Shown: positions 48 to 35,277 of the stretch, in pieces | Layout of the letters: each line of letters begins with the position of its first letter | How positions within the stretch are numbered: the first letter of the stretch is position 1 | From: Waddliaceae bacterium | GTDB taxonomy: Bacteria; Chlamydiota; Chlamydiia; Chlamydiales; Waddliaceae | Direction of reading: 5' to 3' | DNA: 64,000 bases | Assembly: GCA_963724325.1 (NCBI GenBank) | Contig: CAVRUH010000007.1 | Location: 224,001-288,000 of the forward strand | The notes under the pieces: model-generated | What the model was told of the DNA's origin: nothing | Seen by the model: only the letters and a program-made list of their open reading frames with translations | Database searches by the model: none | Program-made: the position numbers and the translations under genes

Positions 48-3000
48 TTGAATAAGACGACCTTGATTCAAGCGGTGTATCGTGCTGAGGATAGAAGTTT
101 ATTAATTATTCCTAGTGAACAAATGGATATTAAAGTTGATATTTGGGTCTACACAGGCGAAATATCCGGCTATGCTTTTTGTACAGATAACCTTCGAATC
201 AACCTCAAGACTTACAGGATCGAAAGCGATAATCCTTGGGGTTGGTGGAGGGGTCAGGTTTTTCGTGTAATCGATTTGACGAAAAGCGGCAATCGACATC
301 TCTTCATGAGGCTTGTTGATAAGGAAGTGAACCGTTATACAACGACGAAAGGGACAGAGTTTTTCTTTTATGACCTATGGGATCCAAACGAATATAAACG
401 GGTTGAGGAGGTATCGGTACAACAGCTTTTCAAAAGATTGACTGTTCAACGCATATGCCTAGAGCATTGTAAAGACCAGTCTCAGTTGCTGTTTCTAATA
501 AATCAAACCTCCCAAGTAAATGGAAAAATAACGTCGAACCGCTTTCTAAGTACATTTTTTGATGCTTTAAATTCCAAAAATAAGGTGGCCCCTTATTTAC
601 ATGCGATTGTTAGATTGATAGCCGCAGTGGCTCTGCGTGAAAGATGGAAAAAGCTTCGTGTTAAATTGCTGAAGCATGAAGACGAATGGTATCTACGCAT
701 GCGCCTTGAGGGTCAAGATTTATTACTCAAATTTCAACCCTATATTGATTTATCTTTGTTATCCGGCTTGGATGAAAAGACTTGGGAGTATTTGAAAAAA
801 GTGATGCATTCTCTTTGGTTGGACGGGATTGAATTGCGTCCCGTCGACAAAAACTTCCGTTCAGAAATCAATAAATATATAGATAACGATCTTTATAAAA
901 AGTTAAAGCAGCTGTTTTTACATGGTGTTAAGAGTGTTTCAGTAGATAAATTTATATCATCTCAACAGAAAACCCTTGCTGAATTTTTGATTCAGAATTG
1001 TACTGAGCCTGCCGAACTCCTTTGGCAGGGTTTGGAAGTATTGACAAATTATGATCAACCCGAGATCAAACGGAAACTATGTTGGGAGGCTGTGGAGAAT
1101 TGTTTGCAATATCATGGATATAATCAGGCTGCCGAGCTAGTTAGGGGGCTGCGCATGGAAAATATAGAGCCGGAGTGCGGCTATGAATTATTCTTTAACA
1201 AGCTGCTAGACGGTAATTGTAATGAATCTGTTCTTCAAACATGTAATCCATATGGTTTTGAGCTTGCTTGGGGGGAACTTGCAAAGGCAGATTCGAGAAG
1301 TCGTAAGCAAAAATTGGTTGAATTGGTGGATGCATCAGAGGCGTCTGATGAGGAATATCTTAGGATTCGCGATTTGACAAAAGTTAAGTCAGTGAAGCTT
1401 TCCGAGGCACGGCTGACATCAATCATGGATTCGCAAGAGTTAGCAGTAGTTTGTCCATTGATTGATAGGCATGATAGAATTGAATACAAAAATTTGCAAT
1501 ATTGTGAAAAGTTAAGTGGTATCATTTTGGGGGCGATTGCTTCATTGGGATATTCTTCACTCACACCTACATGGATTGCAGCTTTTTTGAAATCGGGTAG
1601 GTTCATTGGAGAAAAAAAAGATGTTTGTTCGTTTCTGGTCAAGCAGGATATTGACACAGATGTAAAATCTGAGTTGCTGCGAATGTCTGGAATTCATGAT
1701 AAAGACCTTTGGAGACATATTGTAGGGGAATATTTACGAAATAAAGGCGAATGGCCGAATGATTTCACTATTGGTGGTATGCCGTCGGAAACATTAAGCG
1801 CCTGGTGCACGATTATTCAAAATGCGGAGAAAACCGATAAGATTATACCAATTATCTCAAAGTTAGATGATGAATATGGTCTTAAAAAAGTTGTTCTATT
1901 ACATCTTTTGAAGGGATGGGGGAAGAAGCAAATCCATCATTCTGTGTTAACTCTTCTTGATACAACAAAAGATAAGCTTCCCTGGGAAGAGATTGTCAAA
2001 GAGGCAAATAGTCCTCTCGACATTCTGACGAATCTAAAGGAAGCTAATAGAGGTGTGTTTAATGTTTTTCCGGCCCTAATGAGTGTTGTAAATCCTAAAA
2101 ATGCTGAATTTCTTTTTTCGTGGTGGATTACAAAAAAAATGGATCAACTTGAGCATGAGCAGGCTTTGAGATGCTGTGGAGATAAATGGATCAAAGAATG
2201 CCTTATGTTAAATCCTAAGAAGGCTCTCACATTTTTAAAGAAAATCGCTTGTCCTAAAACGATCACATTTGTGATAGAGGTAGCTGGTGCAAGGGATAAT
2301 ATTGATAAAGATTTATTTGAGTTACTTTTGAGGGCATCATTTGATGTAAATGATCACGGTAAAACAACAGATTATGTGCTTGATAACTCACCAGCAAAGA
2401 CCATTCAAAATGTTGAACTCGCTGCACAGGTAGTTATGTATGCCGATCAATTATTGCGAAATCCACAGGGTAACCTGCATGCTATCGGTAGATTATGGGC
2501 TCTTATTCCAAAAATCTTTATTCCAAAAGATATGCCTCCGCTTGCACCTTCTCATCGATTGCTGGCCTTATCTAAAGCAGGGTATATGCCGATTGTGATT
2601 ATGATGCTTCACGAAAGCAATTCTATGGAAAGAAAAAAAGTTGAGCCGAAACTCTATTGTGAAATCGTGCGCAAACTGCAAGACTCTGAACGGAAAATTG
2701 AGCTCCTCTCAGGTTGTCGGGTTTCATCACCAGCTCTTCAGGACATTTGGTATAATATTGCATTTGCTGGAGAGCCGCGCAGGCCCATTCGCTGTAAATT
2801 AAATTTGGTAACTATTGGCCATCAAGTTGGCATTGCTGCAGATGTCGTTCAATCTTTTGCAGTAGACGTGCTTCAAAACATCCATTTCAATACAGATATT
2901 GAATTGAGCCTTATTGATTCAGTTTATCAATTGCTCGATGTCATTAAGACCCCTGAAATATTTAAACTTTGGGAGGCCCTGGAAAAGACAGGCAAAATTT

Positions 3001-6000
3001 CGAAAGGAAAATTATGGAGTTCGGCTCTTTCCATTATCAAAAATAGTCAGAATGCTCCTCAATCTGCATTAGTTTACTGGTTAGCTGATAACATAAATCA
3101 TGGTAGTTCAGAAGAATTTTTTGTATTGATGCAAACTTTATTACCCAAATTACCTGAGGAATTGACTCACAAAATCGCTAATGGATTCCTTAAAGCTCTC
3201 GCTGTATCAGGGCATGCCCAAGCCAAAGAGCTCTTTTGGAAGTACACAAAAGGAACCTCTGTTACTATGGAGGAATTAGAGGCCCTTGACCCAAATTACG
3301 AGCAAACTAAATTGCTTTTGAATGCGATGATTGACCGCTGTAAACCCAATTCAGAAAATGTTAAAAGTATCTTGCTTGTTTGCCGCATATATGCTGCTTG
3401 CTTTACTGAACATCGATACTGGGCCGATGTTCAGAATATGACACGACAGTTGGTTATTCTGCTTATTAAAATTCTACCTTTTGCCCAAGATGAGAATATA
3501 ACTGTTATACTTGATTATGTAGCTTTTCTGTCAACACATGCCTCTTTTCACAAAATGCAAGATGCTGAGCAAATACTTCTCGATAATTTTGAATTTCTTT
3601 CCCATAATTGTCTGTCATTGATAACTACGGCAATTTATGCAGAAAAGTACATGTGGAATAAGCGTTGGGATTTTATTAAACTTCTTATTGATTCAGGTGT
3701 AGAAACAAAAATATTTTTGGCTGTGGTTTTAATTGAGCGAGAACCTGAAACGATTATTCGATTAGATGGAGCCATGTTTCAAAGGTTGTTTGGGATCACT
3801 CTTCTTAAAGAAAAATGTCTTAAAATTATCGATAAGGCTTTAAATCCAAAGCAACAATATATATTTCAACTTATCGTATTTAGGGAAGAACTCAAAATGC
3901 AAAAAGAAAACTCTTTGCCATTTCTTTTAATCTATATACAAAAACTTATTTTTCTGGTGAAGGATGATTCAGTTTTACCTCTTAAACCTTTTCTTCCGCC
4001 TTTGCTGCATTGCATATTTCAGGCCAAAGACGGGAGGGACCTCTTAATATTCGACAAGCTTAAGCAAGGAATTATTGGGAGACAGAATTCTATTGAAACT
4101 TCATTGTTAATGCTAGTAGAAGCCAAGAAGACAGATAATGAAAATATCCGTATTGAAATTTTTGAATATGTTTGTACGACGCTAGAAAGAGAGCGTATTA
4201 CCAAGCCTGAAGACTATAACCTTCTAATTGATATTTACAAAGTCTTAGAGCTGGCATCGATTCTAGTGCATACACATGACTCATTATGTAAATTTATTAA
4301 ACGCCTAAGTAAGGCTAGGAGGAAAATTGAAACATCCCCTTACAATGAAATAGAGATCCAGCGGTTGTTTGTTGCGACTCTTATGCTGAATAGCGAATTT
4401 CATAGATTCTGTCCTTCTATGAAACTTCAGGTACGATTCATTGTGGATATTATTATGGAGTTGAAGAATTATAAAACCCAGTCCACCGTAGATTTCTTGC
4501 AGCATATTATGTTTATTACTGCTGATCATGTGCTCTATCAATTTCCAGATGCATTTTCACTTTGCAATGAGATATTTCTAGAAGCATATTTAAGCTATTA
4601 TAGCACTGATCTGCTAAAACCACGCCTTAGATATCTCTTTAAGCATCTCGTTATTCAGATTCCCAAAGATAGGGCAGCACGCGAAATTAGCATTTGTAGA
4701 TTTAAAGTTGTTTTATCAACAATAACGCGTATCCTTCAGTTGCATCCTCAAATCCTTCCAGACTTAATTGAATATATTCATCAGGATATCGTCACACTGT
4801 ACAAAGAACATGAAGTGGATCCCTGGGATAGGCTCATTGCCATCTTATTTAAGGAATGTTCAGAGCAGGGGAAGGACGACTCGTATAAATCTCTTGCCTA
4901 TCTCCTTCAAACGCGTCCCTCAGGCGTGGTCCGAGTTGAAAGATTTCCGTTGGATTGCCAAGAAATAGTCCGAAACATACCTTTAATAGTTAATTGTGAA
5001 GAAAGAGTACATCATCTTTCTCGAAAAAAAAATGTTGATGTATTTGAGGAACTGAATTCCATATGGGATGAATTCCTCGATACCTTACCTGAAATGGTGA
5101 CTTCATATTTAATGAAAAGATCAATCAGATTTATACGTGAATTATTGAAAATTGTTTCAGAGCAAATTACCTCTAATTCAAAATCTGCTATAGAATTTCT
5201 TTTTAGGATCAGTAGCTCAGTCCAAACACAAAGGACTGATTATGCCTTTGGAGTAATGATGTCCCTAGCAGAAATATATAGGCCTGAAATCACTGGCGTT
5301 CTTTCTTGGCATGGCAAATTAAACCTTGAAGAGGCCAATTTTGTCATAGCGGAATCACAATGCCAGCTAATGAAATATGTGCCCTGGCCACAATATAAAT
5401 TTCCTGTACCATTATTTAAAGTGTTCATCGATTTTTACTTCAAACAATTTCTTCAAGAAAAACATCATGCTCCTGCATATATTGCAGACAGTGTTCGTGT
5501 CAAATTTACCTATGTTTATATAGGTGCTCTAAATGGCATGCTCATGAATTATAAAGAGCAAAAAGATAAACCGAAGTTTATGAGTAATTTGGGTAAGCTT
5601 GAACAAGTGCGTGGTCTTATAAGCAAAATAAAAATAAAAGTCGTTAATCATTTTGATTTACTTTTGCTTTTAACTTGTAATCATATAGAGTTTTTAAAAG
5701 ACAAGGAATTGGCAGAATTTATTTTAGATTTAATCTATCATAATTTTTCGAATTTTCATCCAACGATAAGCTCTGATATTATTTGTCAAAATCTTGCAAA
5801 ATTCGCAGTCCTTGCCTTTATGTACGGTCCCGATAAAGATACAGATAAGATTCCTAATAAATTTCAAAGAGCTGCATTTTTTAAGTCGGACCAAATTTCT
5901 CAAAAGTCCATACCCTTAGGAAAAGCTCCTGATATTAGCGCCGAATGTATGATCGCAGGAGCTTCTCTGCGGGTGATCACAAATGGTAAATTTGATGATG

Positions 6001-6149
6001 ATACGAGTCTTGAAATCAGGAGAGCAAGTTGTCAGAAAATTGAATGGATACTCCAAGATCTAAAAATTGACGAAATGCAAACAAGCGACTGGTATCGATG
6101 TTGGAAAGCTAAATTCAACACCATCAAAGATGCCCTTAAGGGCACCTGA
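48..6149 (+). CDS. Very large hypothetical protein (2033 aa), Leu/Ile-rich and probably alpha-helical; possible secreted effector
   Basis: Uninterrupted 6.1-kb ORF with TTG start; no motif recognised. Confidence 0.7.
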   Translation: MNKTTLIQAVYRAEDRSLLIIPSEQMDIKVDIWVYTGEISGYAFCTDNLRINLKTYRIESDNPWGWWRGQVFRVIDLTKSGNRHLFMRLVDKEVNRYTTTKGTEFFFYDLWDPNEYKRVEEVSVQQLFKRLTVQRICLEHCKDQSQLLFLINQTSQVNGKITSNRFLSTFFDALNSKNKVAPYLHAIVRLIAAVALRERWKKLRVKLLKHEDEWYLRMRLEGQDLLLKFQPYIDLSLLSGLDEKTWEYLKKVMHSLWLDGIELRPVDKNFRSEINKYIDNDLYKKLKQLFLHGVKSVSVDKFISSQQKTLAEFLIQNCTEPAELLWQGLEVLTNYDQPEIKRKLCWEAVENCLQYHGYNQAAELVRGLRMENIEPECGYELFFNKLLDGNCNESVLQTCNPYGFELAWGELAKADSRSRKQKLVELVDASEASDEEYLRIRDLTKVKSVKLSEARLTSIMDSQELAVVCPLIDRHDRIEYKNLQYCEKLSGIILGAIASLGYSSLTPTWIAAFLKSGRFIGEKKDVCSFLVKQDIDTDVKSELLRMSGIHDKDLWRHIVGEYLRNKGEWPNDFTIGGMPSETLSAWCTIIQNAEKTDKIIPIISKLDDEYGLKKVVLLHLLKGWGKKQIHHSVLTLLDTTKDKLPWEEIVKEANSPLDILTNLKEANRGVFNVFPALMSVVNPKNAEFLFSWWITKKMDQLEHEQALRCCGDKWIKECLMLNPKKALTFLKKIACPKTITFVIEVAGARDNIDKDLFELLLRASFDVNDHGKTTDYVLDNSPAKTIQNVELAAQVVMYADQLLRNPQGNLHAIGRLWALIPKIFIPKDMPPLAPSHRLLALSKAGYMPIVIMMLHESNSMERKKVEPKLYCEIVRKLQDSERKIELLSGCRVSSPALQDIWYNIAFAGEPRRPIRCKLNLVTIGHQVGIAADVVQSFAVDVLQNIHFNTDIELSLIDSVYQLLDVIKTPEIFKLWEALEKTGKISKGKLWSSALSIIKNSQNAPQSALVYWLADNINHGSSEEFFVLMQTLLPKLPEELTHKIANGFLKALAVSGHAQAKELFWKYTKGTSVTMEELEALDPNYEQTKLLLNAMIDRCKPNSENVKSILLVCRIYAACFTEHRYWADVQNMTRQLVILLIKILPFAQDENITVILDYVAFLSTHASFHKMQDAEQILLDNFEFLSHNCLSLITTAIYAEKYMWNKRWDFIKLLIDSGVETKIFLAVVLIEREPETIIRLDGAMFQRLFGITLLKEKCLKIIDKALNPKQQYIFQLIVFREELKMQKENSLPFLLIYIQKLIFLVKDDSVLPLKPFLPPLLHCIFQAKDGRDLLIFDKLKQGIIGRQNSIETSLLMLVEAKKTDNENIRIEIFEYVCTTLERERITKPEDYNLLIDIYKVLELASILVHTHDSLCKFIKRLSKARRKIETSPYNEIEIQRLFVATLMLNSEFHRFCPSMKLQVRFIVDIIMELKNYKTQSTVDFLQHIMFITADHVLYQFPDAFSLCNEIFLEAYLSYYSTDLLKPRLRYLFKHLVIQIPKDRAAREISICRFKVVLSTITRILQLHPQILPDLIEYIHQDIVTLYKEHEVDPWDRLIAILFKECSEQGKDDSYKSLAYLLQTRPSGVVRVERFPLDCQEIVRNIPLIVNCEERVHHLSRKKNVDVFEELNSIWDEFLDTLPEMVTSYLMKRSIRFIRELLKIVSEQITSNSKSAIEFLFRISSSVQTQRTDYAFGVMMSLAEIYRPEITGVLSWHGKLNLEEANFVIAESQCQLMKYVPWPQYKFPVPLFKVFIDFYFKQFLQEKHHAPAYIADSVRVKFTYVYIGALNGMLMNYKEQKDKPKFMSNLGKLEQVRGLISKIKIKVVNHFDLLLLLTCNHIEFLKDKELAEFILDLIYHNFSNFHPTISSDIICQNLAKFAVLAFMYGPDKDTDKIPNKFQRAAFFKSDQISQKSIPLGKAPDISAECMIAGASLRVITNGKFDDDTSLEIRRASCQKIEWILQDLKIDEMQTSDWYRCWKAKFNTIKDALKGT

Positions 6150-6160
6150 CAGCTTATTTT

Positions 6161-6244
6161 CTTCCTATTTTCTTCCTATCCTTCATATCCTGCCGCTTGC
6201 GATCATGCGTATCCTGTTATTCCCTTCTTATCCTTCGTATCCTG
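6161..6244. repeat. REP-like family A copies: intact unit 6179-6218, plus the left half (6231-6244) of the unit interrupted by LSR element copy 1
   Basis: tccttcatatcctgccgcttgcgatcatgcgtatcctgtt; inverted partner at 8104-8158. Confidence 0.85.
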
Positions 6245-7832
6245 CCCCATCACTACTCAATTGGCAATTTTCATAAAGCATTTTCGGTGATATGCAATGC
6301 ATGATTTTTACCTCGCCTTTGGTTATGATAATTTTTTCAACTATTAAACGCACTAGTTTTTGCTTCTCATTGAATGGCAAATCTGGAGCCGATTTTTTAA
6401 CTCTTTCTAAAATACTTTCAAAAGCATGCTCCCAACCGGATCCTATTTCTTTCATAAGTTTTAAATTTAATCGTTCCTTTTTCTCGTTCTCAAGTTCGCC
6501 TCTTCTTTTTTCTAACCCCTGGGCTCTTTGACTTAGAGAAGTTAAATCTAATAAACCACTTTGATATGCATCTAAAAGTCGCTCTCGTTCTTTTATAAGC
6601 TTTTCTAATTCTTTTCTCATCGAAATTTCCTGCCTCTCGATTTCCTCGATATTTCCGCTTTCCTTTTCTCTTCTTTTAAACTCTTCCTGCAACATAAATG
6701 GATTTTGAAGCATTTGAATTATTTCATTATAGACCAAATCATCGAGCTCATCCTGCTGTATATATCCATTAGAACATTTTGGTATTTTATTATCCGAATG
6801 GCTTCGACAATGATAATAATTTTTACTTATTCCCTTATATCTTCTCATTCTTTTATAAAATTGACAACCACATTCGCCGCACGTGATTAATCCTTGAAGC
6901 AAGGAAGGTTCTTTGGTATTTCTTAAGGCTAATTCTTTATTTTTATTTATATATTCCTGTGCTGTTTCAAAATCACTTTCACTAATTATAATTGGAATAT
7001 TTATCTCGTACCAAGAGTCTTCATTAGTTTTTTTTCGTGGATTTTTTGGCTTCAGCCGTCTTAAGCCTTTATAATGCCTTATTTTATCTATACCCTCATA
7101 CTTTTCTGATTTACCATAGGCTGCAGTGCCTATATAAGCCTTATTTTTTAATATCCCTAAGATGGTTGCTGGAAACCAATAGGAATTTCCTTTTGGGCTT
7201 TTAATTTGGACCTCGCTCAACCTTCGACAAATTCCATTTAATGAAAGCCTCTCATGAACATATAAATAAAATATTTTTCTTACAACATTCGCGTCTGTTT
7301 CAACGATTTCAATCACCGTTTGACGTTCATTTTTTATCCTCTGATAGCCATATGGTAGCTTAGGAAGAATAGCTGGATCTCCGCTTTTTGCTTTATGAAT
7401 AGTACCTCGACGAGATCGATCTAATATTAATGCTCTTTCATATTCAGCAAAAATCCCCTGAAAATGAGTAAACATTATTGCTTCAGGAGTGTCACCTTGA
7501 GGAACATTTCTAATGAAAAGAACCTTCACTCCACATCGTCGAAATTCATCTAACAAAATAAGTTGATGAGGATAATTTCTGGCTAACCTATCTGGTGCAT
7601 AGATCAAAATCGCGTCGACAGACTCTGTTCGTATCAAATCTCGTAAATCATCTAAAGCAGGTCTTTGAAGACTTTGACCACTTATACCGTTATCAAGAAA
7701 AAGCCACGTTTCTGGAATTTGATATCCTTCTTTGAGTCCAAATTCTCGAAGAACCAATTCTTGACTTTCGATCGTTTCATCTTCTTTTTGCTTCTGTGAG
7801 GAGACTCTGGCATATATTGCGGCTTTCTTCAT
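6228..7832 (-). CDS. Large serine recombinase (catalytic domain, recombinase domain, zinc ribbon, coiled coil); last 4 residues and the stop come from flanking DNA
   Basis: AAIYARVSS catalytic Ser motif, DRLARN, CGECG...YYHC...C zinc ribbon, coiled coil; AGGAG RBS before the ATG. Confidence 0.95.
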   Translation of the reverse strand: MKKAAIYARVSSQKQKEDETIESQELVLREFGLKEGYQIPETWLFLDNGISGQSLQRPALDDLRDLIRTESVDAILIYAPDRLARNYPHQLILLDEFRRCGVKVLFIRNVPQGDTPEAIMFTHFQGIFAEYERALILDRSRRGTIHKAKSGDPAILPKLPYGYQRIKNERQTVIEIVETDANVVRKIFYLYVHERLSLNGICRRLSEVQIKSPKGNSYWFPATILGILKNKAYIGTAAYGKSEKYEGIDKIRHYKGLRRLKPKNPRKKTNEDSWYEINIPIIISESDFETAQEYINKNKELALRNTKEPSLLQGLITCGECGCQFYKRMRRYKGISKNYYHCRSHSDNKIPKCSNGYIQQDELDDLVYNEIIQMLQNPFMLQEEFKRREKESGNIEEIERQEISMRKELEKLIKERERLLDAYQSGLLDLTSLSQRAQGLEKRRGELENEKKERLNLKLMKEIGSGWEHAFESILERVKKSAPDLPFNEKQKLVRLIVEKIIITKGEVKIMHCISPKMLYENCQLSSDGAGYEG

Positions 7833-7974
7833 GATGGAGCTCCTGATTGATGGATGACCGAATTGATATTGTGCTGTTGAGCAATATCGCTAAGCCCTTG
7901 ATTAATTTTGCTCTTTGATTCCTCTGAGGGTGATATTCGAGTACAATTTTTTGGACTTTGATGCATTTTGACAA
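7777..7974 (-). CDS. Possible small basic protein (about 65 aa, TTG start) overlapping the LSR start; candidate directionality or accessory factor
   Basis: Open frame LSKCIKVQKIVLEYHPQRNQRAKLIKGLAILL... downstream of a candidate promoter; weak RBS; same frame in copy 2 (34890-35087). Confidence 0.35.
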   Translation of the reverse strand: MSKCIKVQKIVLEYHPQRNQRAKLIKGLAILLNSTISIRSSINQELHHEESRNICQSLLTEAKRR

Positions 7975-8009
7975 TGTTCTGAGCCTTGTTTCGAGAAGAA
8001 TATTTACCG

Positions 8010-8037
8010 ATTGTACTTCTATCAAACATTTTCTCAA
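8010..8037 (-). promoter_or_regulatory. Candidate sigma70-type promoter inside the LSR element
   Basis: Minus strand TTGAGA-16 bp-TACAAT. Confidence 0.4.
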
Positions 8038-8068
8038 AACAAATTTTGCCAATTGAGTATTGATGGGG

Positions 8069-8158
8069 TGCCGCTTGCGATCATGCATATCCTGTTATTC
8101 CCTAGGGAAACAGGATACGCATGATCGCAAGCGGCAGGATATGGAGGATAGGAAGAAA
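8069..8158. repeat. REP-like family A: right half of the interrupted unit plus an intact inverted unit (8109-8148)
   Basis: tgccgcttgcgatcatgcatatcctgtt followed by aacaggatacgcatgatcgcaagcggcaggatatggagga. Confidence 0.85.
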
Positions 8159-11674: not shown

Positions 11675-13012
11675 CTATTTTGTCAAAATTGGAAATCGAC
11701 TTGCAAAATACAATGGGTAGCTGTGGACACTATTGCGTTGATCGATTTTAAATGGACGGCCACTCATGATCGTTCGATATTTTGATGAGTATTTTTCCAC
11801 AAATTTTTGTAGGCTTGCAGCATGGGTGACATTACCTGATTTCACTTCTATGGGCAAAATATCGCCGTCAATATTCTCTAACAAATTCCACTTCAGAGCG
11901 TCCGTCTTGCCAGGTATATAGTTCCTTGCAGTTCGTACTGAAAAATTCTTGTGCAATAAAATTCTCTGCAAAATAGCCTTTATAGGTTCCATATTGATAT
12001 TCTAAAATAGTCTTAGGGGCAAGACCGCTTAAAGCCCCAAGCATCCCAACATCAAAAACAAATAATTTAAAACGACCTTCCTCAGTATAAGCGGAAAGGG
12101 GATGTTCAGCGGTTTGGATGATTGGTATTTTGAATATTAGTCCAGCATTTTCAAGCCAATCAAAAACATTTGCAAGCCTGCTGTAGCGATCTATTCCTTC
12201 AATACAATGCCATAAATTGATATCTTTTTGATGAACCATCAACAGTGCTTGCCAATTGATTCGGGATGGAACGCCAAATTCGATCGATATGCATGGCATT
12301 GACTTTTCCGGAGTGTTTAGCAATATCGGCATAATAATCAGAGAGCAATTGAGTTTGTTTTTCACGAACTTTTTCGAAAGCTACAAATAAATTTTCTTTA
12401 TTATCAATAAAGATCTGAACAGCTTCGGGCAAACCCCCGACAATAAAATACCATTTCAAACGTTCCCAAATGCGATCATGCACTAAGAGTTGGGATAACA
12501 GTGTCTAGTCTCGCAGGATTCAATTAAATCAGCGGATAAATTCTCATCGATAGCTCGCAAAAATTCGACAAAAGTTAAGTGGATATAAATAACCTGTTTG
12601 AATTTTTCCAACGGGATACGATTCATGATTGAGTCAAACCCCAAGTAGCGATCCGGCACAACAAAGTGCTAGTTCGGGCATGTCTTCTTGAAAATATTTC
12701 AAGCTTGTTAAGGCTCTTGGGATAGCTTGAATTTCATCAAATATGACCAGATCATTTTTCACATCAATTGGGTCTGTTCTGATGAAAGCTGAGTTGATCG
12801 ATAAGATGATGTGGATCCAAATTCGATTCAAATATCTTGGCAAGTTCAGGCTCTTTCTCAAAATTAAAATAGTGTATATTTGGGAATTCGTTCGCGCCAA
12901 AATGTTTGAGTAAGTAGGTTTTTCCGCATTGGCGAACTCCACGTAGCATCAATGGCTTTTTGTGACCACTTGCTTTCCATTCTTGCAGACTTTGATAAAA
13001 TTGTCTCTTCAT
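11675..13012 (-). pseudogene. Multiply frameshifted AAA_14/DUF4143-type ATPase with a C-terminal nuclease-like motif
   Basis: Five collinear fragments in different frames: GVRQCGKT, LVIFDEIQ, YFIVGGLPEAV, FKLFVFDVGML...AENF, LPIEVKSG. Confidence 0.85.
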
Positions 13013-13013
13013 A

Positions 13014-13084
13014 CTTGCAATTATCGTCAATTTTGACGGAAATTGCAAGCAAAAATCGTCAATTTATGACGGAAATTGCAAGCA
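13014..13084. promoter_or_regulatory. Tandem palindromic operator-like sites abutting the ATPase pseudogene start
   Basis: atcgtcaattt(a)tgacggaaattgcaagca twice (13023-13051, 13055-13084); 13014-13049 is an imperfect palindrome. Confidence 0.5.
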
Positions 13085-32999: not shown

Positions 33000-33357
33000 G
33001 CAAGCGGCAGGATATGAAGGATGTAGGCGGAGGATAGGAGGCAGTGGCGTCAACTTAAAGAAAAATCTATAATTTTTGTCTATATAGACAAGAGGTAGGT
33101 TTTGGAAGGCTGAAGGCCGGGCTCTTAATAGCCCAGACCGCAGTGGAGCAAGCGCAAGCGAGCGGAACGGAGGTCTGGGTTGGGTGACAAATAGAACTGC
33201 GAGGGCTGAAAGCCCGATACATCAAATGACGGCTATTAATGAGTCGGGCTTTCAGCCTTCCAAAACCTACCTCTTGTCTATATAGACAAAAATTATAGAT
33301 TTTTCTTTAAGTTGACGCCACTGCCTCCTATCCTCCGCCTACATCCTTCATATCCTG
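32981..33357. repeat. Long REPIN-like hairpin with 134-bp perfect arms; the right arm (33251-33357, resuming at 35184) is interrupted by LSR element copy 2
   Basis: The reverse complement of 32981-33114 matches 33251-33357 joined to 35184-35210. Confidence 0.9.
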
Positions 33358-34945
33358 CCCCATCACTACTCAATTGGCAATTTTCATAAAGCATTTTCGG
33401 TGATATGCAATGCATGATTTTTACCTCGCCTTTGGTTATGATAATTTTTTCAACTATTAAACGCACTAGTTTTTGCTTCTCATTGAATGGCAAATCTGGA
33501 GCCGATTTTTTAACTCTTTCTAAAATACTTTCAAAAGCATGCTCCCAACCGGATCCTATTTCTTTCATAAGTTTTAAATTTAATCGTTCCTTTTTCTCGT
33601 TCTCAAGTTCGCCTCTTCTTTTTTCTAACCCCTGGGCTCTTTGACTTAGAGAAGTTAAATCTAATAAACCACTTTGATATGCATCTAAAAGTCGCTCTCG
33701 TTCTTTTATAAGCTTTTCTAATTCTTTTCTCATCGAAATTTCCTGCCTCTCGATTTCCTCGATATTTCCGCTTTCCTTTTCTCTTCTTTTAAACTCTTCC
33801 TGCAACATAAATGGATTTTGAAGCATTTGAATTATTTCATTATAGACCAAATCATCGAGCTCATCCTGCTGTATATATCCATTAGAACATTTTGGTATTT
33901 TATTATCCGAATGGCTTCGACAATGATAATAATTTTTACTTATTCCCTTATATCTTCTCATTCTTTTATAAAATTGACAACCACATTCGCCGCACGTGAT
34001 TAATCCTTGAAGCAAGGAAGGTTCTTTGGTATTTCTTAAGGCTAATTCTTTATTTTTATTTATATATTCCTGTGCTGTTTCAAAATCACTTTCACTAATT
34101 ATAATTGGAATATTTATCTCGTACCAAGAGTCTTCATTAGTTTTTTTTCGTGGATTTTTTGGCTTCAGCCGTCTTAAGCCTTTATAATGCCTTATTTTAT
34201 CTATACCCTCATACTTTTCTGATTTACCATAGGCTGCAGTGCCTATATAAGCCTTATTTTTTAATATCCCTAAGATGGTTGCTGGAAACCAATAGGAATT
34301 TCCTTTTGGGCTTTTAATTTGGACCTCGCTCAACCTTCGACAAATTCCATTTAATGAAAGCCTCTCATGAACATATAAATAAAATATTTTTCTTACAACA
34401 TTCGCGTCTGTTTCAACGATTTCAATCACCGTTTGACGTTCATTTTTTATCCTCTGATAGCCATATGGTAGCTTAGGAAGAATAGCTGGATCTCCGCTTT
34501 TTGCTTTATGAATAGTACCTCGACGAGATCGATCTAATATTAATGCTCTTTCATATTCAGCAAAAATCCCCTGAAAATGAGTAAACATTATTGCTTCAGG
34601 AGTGTCACCTTGAGGAACATTTCTAATGAAAAGAACCTTCACTCCACATCGTCGAAATTCATCTAACAAAATAAGTTGATGAGGATAATTTCTGGCTAAC
34701 CTATCTGGTGCATAGATCAAAATCGCGTCGACAGACTCTGTTCGTATCAAATCTCGTAAATCATCTAAAGCAGGTCTTTGAAGACTTTGACCACTTATAC
34801 CGTTATCAAGAAAAAGCCACGTTTCTGGAATTTGATATCCTTCTTTGAGTCCAAATTCTCGAAGAACCAATTCTTGACTTTCGATCGTTTCATCTTCTTT
34901 TTGCTTCTGTGAGGAGACTCTGGCATATATTGCGGCTTTCTTCAT
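33293..34945 (-). CDS. Large serine recombinase (550 aa); last 20 residues come from the flanking repeat
   Basis: Same sequence as 6228..7832 through ...SSDGAGYEG, then CRRRIGGSGVNLKKNL. Confidence 0.95.
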   Translation of the reverse strand: MKKAAIYARVSSQKQKEDETIESQELVLREFGLKEGYQIPETWLFLDNGISGQSLQRPALDDLRDLIRTESVDAILIYAPDRLARNYPHQLILLDEFRRCGVKVLFIRNVPQGDTPEAIMFTHFQGIFAEYERALILDRSRRGTIHKAKSGDPAILPKLPYGYQRIKNERQTVIEIVETDANVVRKIFYLYVHERLSLNGICRRLSEVQIKSPKGNSYWFPATILGILKNKAYIGTAAYGKSEKYEGIDKIRHYKGLRRLKPKNPRKKTNEDSWYEINIPIIISESDFETAQEYINKNKELALRNTKEPSLLQGLITCGECGCQFYKRMRRYKGISKNYYHCRSHSDNKIPKCSNGYIQQDELDDLVYNEIIQMLQNPFMLQEEFKRREKESGNIEEIERQEISMRKELEKLIKERERLLDAYQSGLLDLTSLSQRAQGLEKRRGELENEKKERLNLKLMKEIGSGWEHAFESILERVKKSAPDLPFNEKQKLVRLIVEKIIITKGEVKIMHCISPKMLYENCQLSSDGAGYEGCRRRIGGSGVNLKKNL

Positions 34946-35181
34946 GATGGAGCTCCTGATTGATGGATGACCGAATTGATATTGTGCTGTTGAGCAATAT
35001 CGCTAAGCCCTTGATTAATTTTGCTCTTTGATTCCTCTGAGGGTGATATTCGAGTACAATTTTTTGGACTTTGATGCATTTTGACAATGTTCTGAGCCTT
35101 GTTTCGAGAAGAATATTTACCGATTGTACTTCTATCAAACATTTTCTCAAAACAAATTTTGCCAATTGAGTATTGATGGGG
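33358..35181 (-). mobile_element. 1824-bp IS-like large serine recombinase element, copy 2
   Basis: IRs 33358-33380 and 35159-35181; flanking TG at 33356-33357 and 35182-35183; offset exactly 27113 bp from copy 1; encoded protein identical over the element. Confidence 0.92.
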
Positions 35182-35277
35182 TGCCGCTTGCGATCCTGCA
35201 TATCCTGTTATTTTTTTGAGGGCTTGCAACCTGGCATATCCTGTTTTTTTTTAAGGAGGGCAAGTGTTTGGTTGTAC

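Follow-up and report, generated by a model that had tools for sequence, protein, structure and literature searches.

The 64,000-nucleotide window analysed here (positions 224,001 to 288,000 of contig CAVRUH010000007.1, from a Waddliaceae bacterium) carries an insertion sequence (IS)-sized element whose large serine recombinase (LSR) gene runs through the element's own attP. In the chromosome this gene ends in host sequence, and in the reconstructed circle it continues into an element-encoded tail. Comparison with 36 curated relatives indicates that the read-through frame is selected across the whole family and is not a product of chance, and the tail is very probably translated and selected as protein. 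Structural models place the start of the tail on the surface used by recombination directionality factors (RDFs), and we give about an even chance to the idea that the tail is a built-in plug of that site, which would bias the circle enzyme towards integration. Somewhat more tentatively, this may be a widespread IS family with a two-part direction switch encoded in DNA topology, in which an RDF-mimicking strand would act in the circle and the neighbouring gene orfX would drive excision once the element is integrated. An attP inside a serine integrase gene is already in print, for phage Goe14 and for DsiB; what is new here is a variant of this integration-split integrase design. The parts of the system on which the argument leans are these:

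6243..8070, minus strand: the IS-sized element, 1828 bp long when both CA cores are counted and 1826 bp as a circle, present in seven genome copies with identical ends.
6228..7832, minus strand: the LSR gene in its integrated form, 1605 nt and 534 residues, with the last four codons and the stop taken from the host repeat.
7829..8068, minus strand: the circle-only tail frame, 79 codons plus a TGA (7831-7829) that overlaps the recombinase ATG; stop-depleted in relatives.
8021..8044, minus strand: the conserved motif of the tail, covering its residues 9-16 (539-546 in circle-protein numbering), a predicted beta-strand added to DNA-binding domain 2 (DBD2).
6243..6244, no strand: the crossover dinucleotide at the gene 3' end, codon 530 positions 2-3, 16 nt after the start of the invariant Leu525.
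8069..8070, no strand: the crossover dinucleotide at the leader end.
6245..6267, no strand: an inverted-repeat arm, one attP half, within coding sequence; 23 nt, 96% complementary to 8046-8068.
8046..8068, no strand: the inverted-repeat arm forming the other attP half, which encodes tail codons 1-8 in the circle.

The CA core, taken as the crossover because it is duplicated at all seven copies, falls within codon 530 (6245-6243). The integrated proteins are 533, 533, 533, 534, 534, 548 and 550 residues long, each with its stop supplied by the host; the copy listed above ends GYEG-stop at 534 residues and the second copy in the window ends at 550. Joined in silico, the 1826-bp circle is a single open reading frame (ORF) of 609 residues. 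These coordinates, the crossover at codon 530, both ends, the circle and its ORF had been proposed in a sequence-only reading of the window, and all were reproduced. The arrangement is that of an integration-split integrase, with attP inside the integrase ORF and the stop codon outside the element. The element-encoded C-terminus is restored in the free form, in silico, with 79 residues here and at least 16 in 36/36 relatives, and the canonical domains are all present in the short, integrated form. Those domains are, in order, Resolvase (4-152), Recombinase (179-297) and Zn_ribbon_recom (311-371), all above the Pfam cut-offs. In an alignment of 58 rows, Y7, R9 and S11 of the YARVS motif, which we take to be catalytic, are at least 90% conserved, and C318, C321, C342 and C353, presumably the zinc cysteines, are invariant. 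The attachment sites fit the LSR type, with a 2-bp CA core at both ends of 7/7 copies and 23-nt inverted arms. The coincidence of the tail's TGA with the recombinase ATG needs no separate cause, because an ATG followed by A always gives TGA in that frame.

The sequence-only reading had warned that so long an open frame could be chance, and for this leader alone the warning has some force: a frame open for 79 codons has P = 0.028, and two of three open frames have P = 0.0012 (20,000 dinucleotide shuffles). What excludes chance is the set of relatives, 20 of them AT-rich and 16 mostly GC-rich, in which the recombinase frame is open for at least 16 codons past the junction in 36/36, compared with 8/36 and 6/36 for the other two frames. 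Stops right after attP, or an unconserved tail, were named in that reading as what would speak against it; the reconstructed circles of homologous elements have no such stops, and their tail motif is conserved across phyla. Between the arm and orfX, 18 AT-rich elements have one stop in 469 codons of this frame as against 22 and 85 in the others, and where tail and orfX overlap they have 7 stops (4 in one element) against 35.5 expected from synonymous resampling of orfX codons. The two counts exclude a read-through frame that is a mere shadow of orfX. Leader length is 2 mod 3 in 19/20 AT-rich elements and unfixed in the GC-rich ones (6/5/5).

Selection at the protein level is most visible just outside the arm, where residue 9 of the tail is F or I in 34/36 elements, residue 11 is F or L in 34/36 and residue 12 is E or D in 28/36. 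When 17 disjoint pairs are compared over codons 9-16, the counts of differences at the three codon positions are 34/31/64 (P about 1e-4), and single changes divide 30:26 into synonymous and non-synonymous, where the other frames give 3:47 and 5:36. The GC-rich elements carry the clearest codon signal (17/17/40, P = 2e-4; synonymous to non-synonymous 17:7). Conservation is limited to about the first 16-24 tail residues, and the rest of the 79 is unconserved. The earlier proposal of a state-dependent tail is partly supported, by the conserved open frame, the motif and the docking described below, within those first 16-24 residues, and a reading of the tail as a degradation tag is unsupported: ssrA-like tags are recognised by an AA ending, 0/36 tails end in AA, and the last four residues are unconserved.

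The relatives were gathered from 2418 proteins matched among 7998 scored, and in the best 120 the sequences diverge a few residues after Leu525; a first genome scan with a single protein query had given no match. The sources of relative loci include 18 plasmid regions. A free register scan found the best core-matched arm 16 nt after the Leu525 codon in most of the AT-rich elements listed, and a fixed register (Leu codon 16 nt before the core, no earlier stop) then gave ends for 70 of 97 loci. Dropped were 15 loci with arms under 15 of 24, 2 that were one codon out of register and 10 with miscalled ends, the last having arm scores at chance level or impossible coordinates and tails that ran for 0 to 51 codons (0 and 8 in two cases) or met no stop. 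From the 70, 49 were passed on and 35 were left at <90% identity; restoring an early-stop element (L021) made 36. The absence of a stop before attP is partly built into the locus rule, and independent support for it comes from the free register scan and the protein ends. The 20 AT-rich elements measure 1.80-1.87 kb, with a median pairwise identity of 48%, and the named ones are mostly from Chlamydiota; the 16 mostly GC-rich elements measure 1.8-2.5 kb and come from Actinomycetota, Alphaproteobacteria, Gammaproteobacteria, Thermodesulfobacteriota and Cyanobacteriota. A quick tree was made of the 36, with no TndX-like clade members in it, and 23 viral loci were excluded as distant (22-30%).

Where the tail might act is suggested by structure models. 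The model of the 534-residue protein (mean pLDDT 76.9) matches the fold of the SPbeta, Bxb1, phiC31 and LI integrases, with a coiled coil (helices 379-480) inserted in DBD2, which ends in a hairpin (498-512) followed by low-confidence residues. With residues 300-530 and tail residues 1-32 given as separate chains, the complex model scored 0.61, against 0.02 for the best of three controls, and unrelated control peptides failed to dock on DBD2. The mark used for such scores was reached by 116/157 solved complexes and 2/215 mismatched pairs, counts that are only rough with the alignments used here. The runs share at least 81% of contacts, with partner pLDDT of at least 58. In the model, tail residues 9-16 lie antiparallel to the last DBD2 strand (507-514), and the tail contacts residues 358-370 and 380-385 at the coiled-coil hinge, and also residue 456. 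Residue 514 adjoins tail residue 9 although the chains are unlinked, as a covalent link needs, and this leaves a 24-residue loop, for most of which the two attP arms are the coding sequence. In the alignment the SPbeta counterpart of residues 380-385 is 385-393, between hinges 379/380 and 401/402, and the chain of the LI/A118 integrase stops about 10 residues past the equivalent of the last DBD2 strand. In the parts of the published work available to us, here and below, the SPbeta RDF binds DBD2 as well as the segments between the hinges (PMC11722253), and Shin et al. place RDFs at the junction of DBD2 and coiled coil, predict that some add sheet strands and expect C-terminal integrase extensions to block the RDF site (10.1101/2024.06.11.598349). 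The models therefore support, as far as docking can, a tail strand that binds DBD2 at the RDF site.

A possible partner for that site lies in the same leader:

7974..7777, minus strand: orfX, 65 residues, beginning at a TTG that has AAGG upstream of it and running over the start of the recombinase gene in that gene's -1 frame; a candidate directionality factor.
8010..8037, minus strand: a putative sigma-70-like promoter (TTGAGA, 16 nt, TACAAT), overlapping tail codons 11-20 and present in both states.

We regard orfX as a candidate RDF because of its size, its place and its conservation with the integrase. A TTG, GTG or ATG start stands 9-14 codons before an EY..QRNQ..KLI.GLAILL block in 18/18 AT-rich elements, often with AAGG or AGGG upstream; most GC-rich elements have a similar strand-plus-helix block in the orfX frame, and 2 of the 36 elements lack the frame. 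The 18 members share no Pfam family, and the Atlas matches of orfX are under 0.9. A second open frame in this leader had been noticed before, though not as a gene: its last 65 codons are this conserved gene, and its first 31, open here, are mostly closed in relatives. As for the promoter, the 9 promoter-like sites found against 7.0 expected make it weak alone, and the 20 AT-rich relatives have a similar spacing at the corresponding position; the tail motif lies within or upstream of it. Two further features of the region deserve mention. An ATG in the host repeat, in frame with orfX, gives a 103-residue ORF (8088-7777, minus strand); the ATG is present in 6/7 copies and the frame is mostly closed in relatives. 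In the GC-rich relatives L148, L149, L152, L154 and L157 the leader holds an additional ribbon-helix-helix (CopG-like) gene between tail and orfX.

Taken together, these parts suggest the following cycle. In the chromosome, the leader promoter would drive orfX and the short recombinase, whose hinge site would be free; OrfX would bind that site and promote excision by attL x attR. In the circle, transcription would continue across attP and the 609-residue form would be made, with its own strand filling the RDF site so that OrfX is excluded. The tailed form would then carry out attP x attB integration at another repeat copy, and this integration would sever the tail again.

The same conservation and docking data could be read as a switch of rate instead of direction, and this is the less likely but most serious alternative. 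The tail strand would complete or stabilise DBD2, making the circle form more active or longer-lived and quieting inserted copies. Host-encoded ends that are short and variable would suit it, with a stop within six codons in 15/19 AT-rich elements and 155/178 empty repeats of this genome, and McMurdie et al. suggest that DsiB is fully functional perhaps only on the circle (PMC3146451). However, the docked strand contacts the very hinge segment that controls direction in SPbeta, the short form still has to excise, and the end of the LI/A118 integrase roughly coincides with that of the short form.

Several observations weigh against the plug model itself, and we gather them here. Many LSRs integrate without a plug, so the tail is dispensable in principle, and the model offers no explanation for the long stretch of the AT-rich tails that is not conserved. 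Taken by itself, the AT-rich clade shows no significant third-position excess (17/14/24, P = 0.07), a -35-like hexamer covers motif codons 11-13, and two relatives stop after 19 and 20 codons, though 3' of the motif. The docking score may partly reflect the integrase-RDF complexes already solved. OrfX modelled alone folds as one long helix, an uninformative shape, and profile comparison of tail and orfX gave no match (probability 0.07); a motif scan in which 12/34 reach p < 0.1, 10 of them GC-rich, is kept as a lead only. The circle junction was not found in contigs from 4 of 19 listed runs, at a depth of about 5 and in contigs that drop rare forms; a joint skipping 1877 nt does occur there, with just 20 letters on one side, compatible with any empty repeat. 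Recombinase-tail fusions make up 0/30 and 0/32 tail-profile matches, all of which are host-to-tail junction ORFs or tail pieces, which is weak evidence because circles rarely assemble.

It is also conceivable, though improbable as the whole explanation, that the frame is open for the sake of expression. Ribosomes crossing attP would sustain transcription along the circle, melt the attP hairpin and re-start at the ATG of the recombinase, and the motif would follow from constraints on the DNA (att arm, promoter). The AT-rich frame stays open for 60-79 codons in 16/20 elements (19, 20, 42 and 48 in the other four) with little residue conservation after about residue 20, and in 15/18 its stop is no more than 5 nt away from a start codon of the recombinase. 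The attP RNA is predicted to fold as a long hairpin with a T-rich run behind it (-34.9 kcal/mol, against -11.5 for the integrated end), and the hexamer over codons 11-13 would also fit. Yet GC-rich tails end far from the ATG, after 16-37 codons in 14/16, and theirs is the clearest codon signal; at codon 11, TTT and TTC replace each other, which changes the -35 hexamer and keeps Phe; and unrelated peptides do not dock. Coupling of expression may be a second function in the AT-rich clade.

Much less likely is a tail that works as a tethered directionality factor, so that the circle form, like an integrase-RDF fusion, favours excision or blocks re-integration and limits copy number. A circle that does not integrate would be lost, yet there are seven near-identical copies; the available account of SPbeta has direction switched by the RDF helix and not by a strand alone (PMC11722253); and only 2/20 AT-rich elements show a resemblance to orfX. 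That the leader frame is a separate small gene, joined in frame by accident in the circle, we consider very improbable: ATGs do occur at tail codons 14 and 35 here (66-residue ORF, 8029-7829) and gene callers annotate such ORFs (P0166, P0170, P0171), but no start codon is conserved in the tail (4/18 tails lack one, and its position varies among the rest), conserved residues precede most of these starts, and the frame is fixed relative to the crossover.

The plug model can be set beside several known systems. The SSV1 integrase is split on integration, and it and phage BPs were the precedents named in the sequence-only reading; closer ones exist among the serine integrases, in Goe14 and DsiB. 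Int of the Myxococcus phage Mx8 is a tyrosine-family integrase and differs from the recombinase here in chemistry and control. Its attP also lies inside int, and experiments showed that integration creates a new 3' end and changes enzyme behaviour (PMC6070905). In BPs-like phages it is a repressor whose C-terminus depends on the state, attP lying close to the 3' end of its gene, and this repressor bears an ssrA-like degradation tag (PMC6109161), unlike the tails here. In the Bacillus phage Goe14, attP lies in the part of the serine integrase gene that encodes the C-terminus, so that integration shortens the protein; its authors speculate that the long form integrates and the short form excises, and the available parts of the report contain neither a test nor a conservation analysis of the two forms (10.1101/2021.11.22.469490). 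Goe14 is a phage with a single site, spoVK, that loses 131 residues and has no RDF gene seen in that text, whereas the element here is 1.8 kb long and multi-copy, with an ORF around the whole circle, a short conserved strand and an adjacent candidate RDF gene. DsiB of the Dehalococcoides ssrA islands is a serine recombinase of about 540 residues that always overlaps attL, has its stop outside the island and is maybe complete only on the circle; unlike our element, those islands are large, sit at one gene and carry a six-gene module, with the circle tail undescribed in the parts available (PMC3146451). The recombinase shares its domain set and fold with the integrase of the SPbeta SprA/SprB pair, and its tail is modelled on the surface used by the RDF. 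In SPbeta-type pairs a separate protein alone sets direction, and no state-encoded plug is described in the text available (PMC11722253; 10.1101/2024.06.11.598349).

In the literature covered, which leaves subscription journals, ISfinder and supplements outside its scope, we found no description of this IS-sized family, its tail or orfX. In TnpX transposons a promoter is made by the circle junction. The element here differs from TnpX and TndX in having an internal promoter-like site, one host-repeat position as its target and no DUF4368, for which the recombinase gave no Pfam match (E <= 0.001). DUF4368 occurs in 63% of the TndX-like multi-targeting LSR clade, and TnpX/TndX transposons and multi-targeting LSRs share LSR-driven movement to many sites via a circle (Durrant et al., PMC10083194).

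The question of how serine-recombinase elements choose between excision and insertion in the absence of a phage regulatory circuit comes down here to a pair of proteins, a motif of 8 residues and att sites that can be read, all within 1.8 kb, and the two reports of an attP lying inside the gene of a serine integrase (Goe14, DsiB) left the idea as speculation. If the two-part switch is real, the recombinase reads the state of its own DNA, and the 16-residue strand would be a portable anti-RDF. Strictly one-way integrases could be made with the help of a peptide that acts in cis to block the RDF site. LSRs mined from integrated copies may also miss their native C-terminus. The family ranges from Chlamydiota-like hosts, in REP-like repeats, to rhizobia and actinobacteria, in group II intron reverse-transcriptase genes.

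The remaining features of the insertion sites are these:

6218..6242, no strand: the downstream half of the host repeat, which supplies GYEG and the stop.
8071..8103, no strand: the upstream half of the host repeat.
33356..35183, minus strand: a second identical element copy in the window, the 550-residue form (C7:257356-259183).

Five of the seven copies in the genome are identical and the other two share the same three substitutions. All seven are inserted at the same CA within an intergenic host repeat, of which 178 empty copies (at most 4 mismatches of 30) were counted, 177 with CA at the core; such precise insertions imply recombination activity, as far as sequence can tell. Three copies lie in one repeat cluster (C1:24024-29734); the two with the three substitutions are arranged tail to tail there at a distance of 66 bp, likely the result of a local hop. 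An Rfam search of the repeat pair gave sub-threshold miRNA-hairpin matches only, and a Y1 transposase-family gene lies in the same genome at C5:207478-207774 (L166). Left and right cores are equal in 25/36 relatives and differ in 11/36, with differences also between copies of one element in one genome (L089-L097), and the recombinase may tolerate mismatched cores. Short repeats that form hairpins are the targets of the AT-rich elements, and AGCC(C) often stands 5-7 nt away from the core. The prompt host stops of the AT-rich elements are not claimed as selection, being partly due to the target motif (T-A-G at +4 to +6); the GC-rich clade does not have such prompt stops (2/14). Record annotation places the GC-rich relatives L148, L149 and L154 (both flanks) and L152 and L157 (one flank) inside group II intron reverse-transcriptase/maturase genes, and several metagenome loci have similar flanks; a literature search on elements inside these genes found no report.

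Elsewhere in the window, a 2033-residue ORF with no Pfam match (48-6149, plus strand) ends 94 bp before the element. A series of short overlapping ORFs at 11675-13065 (minus strand), with a 33-nt inverted repeat at its start, resembles a single frameshifted ATPase gene and includes GVRQCGKT, which we take to be Walker A-like.

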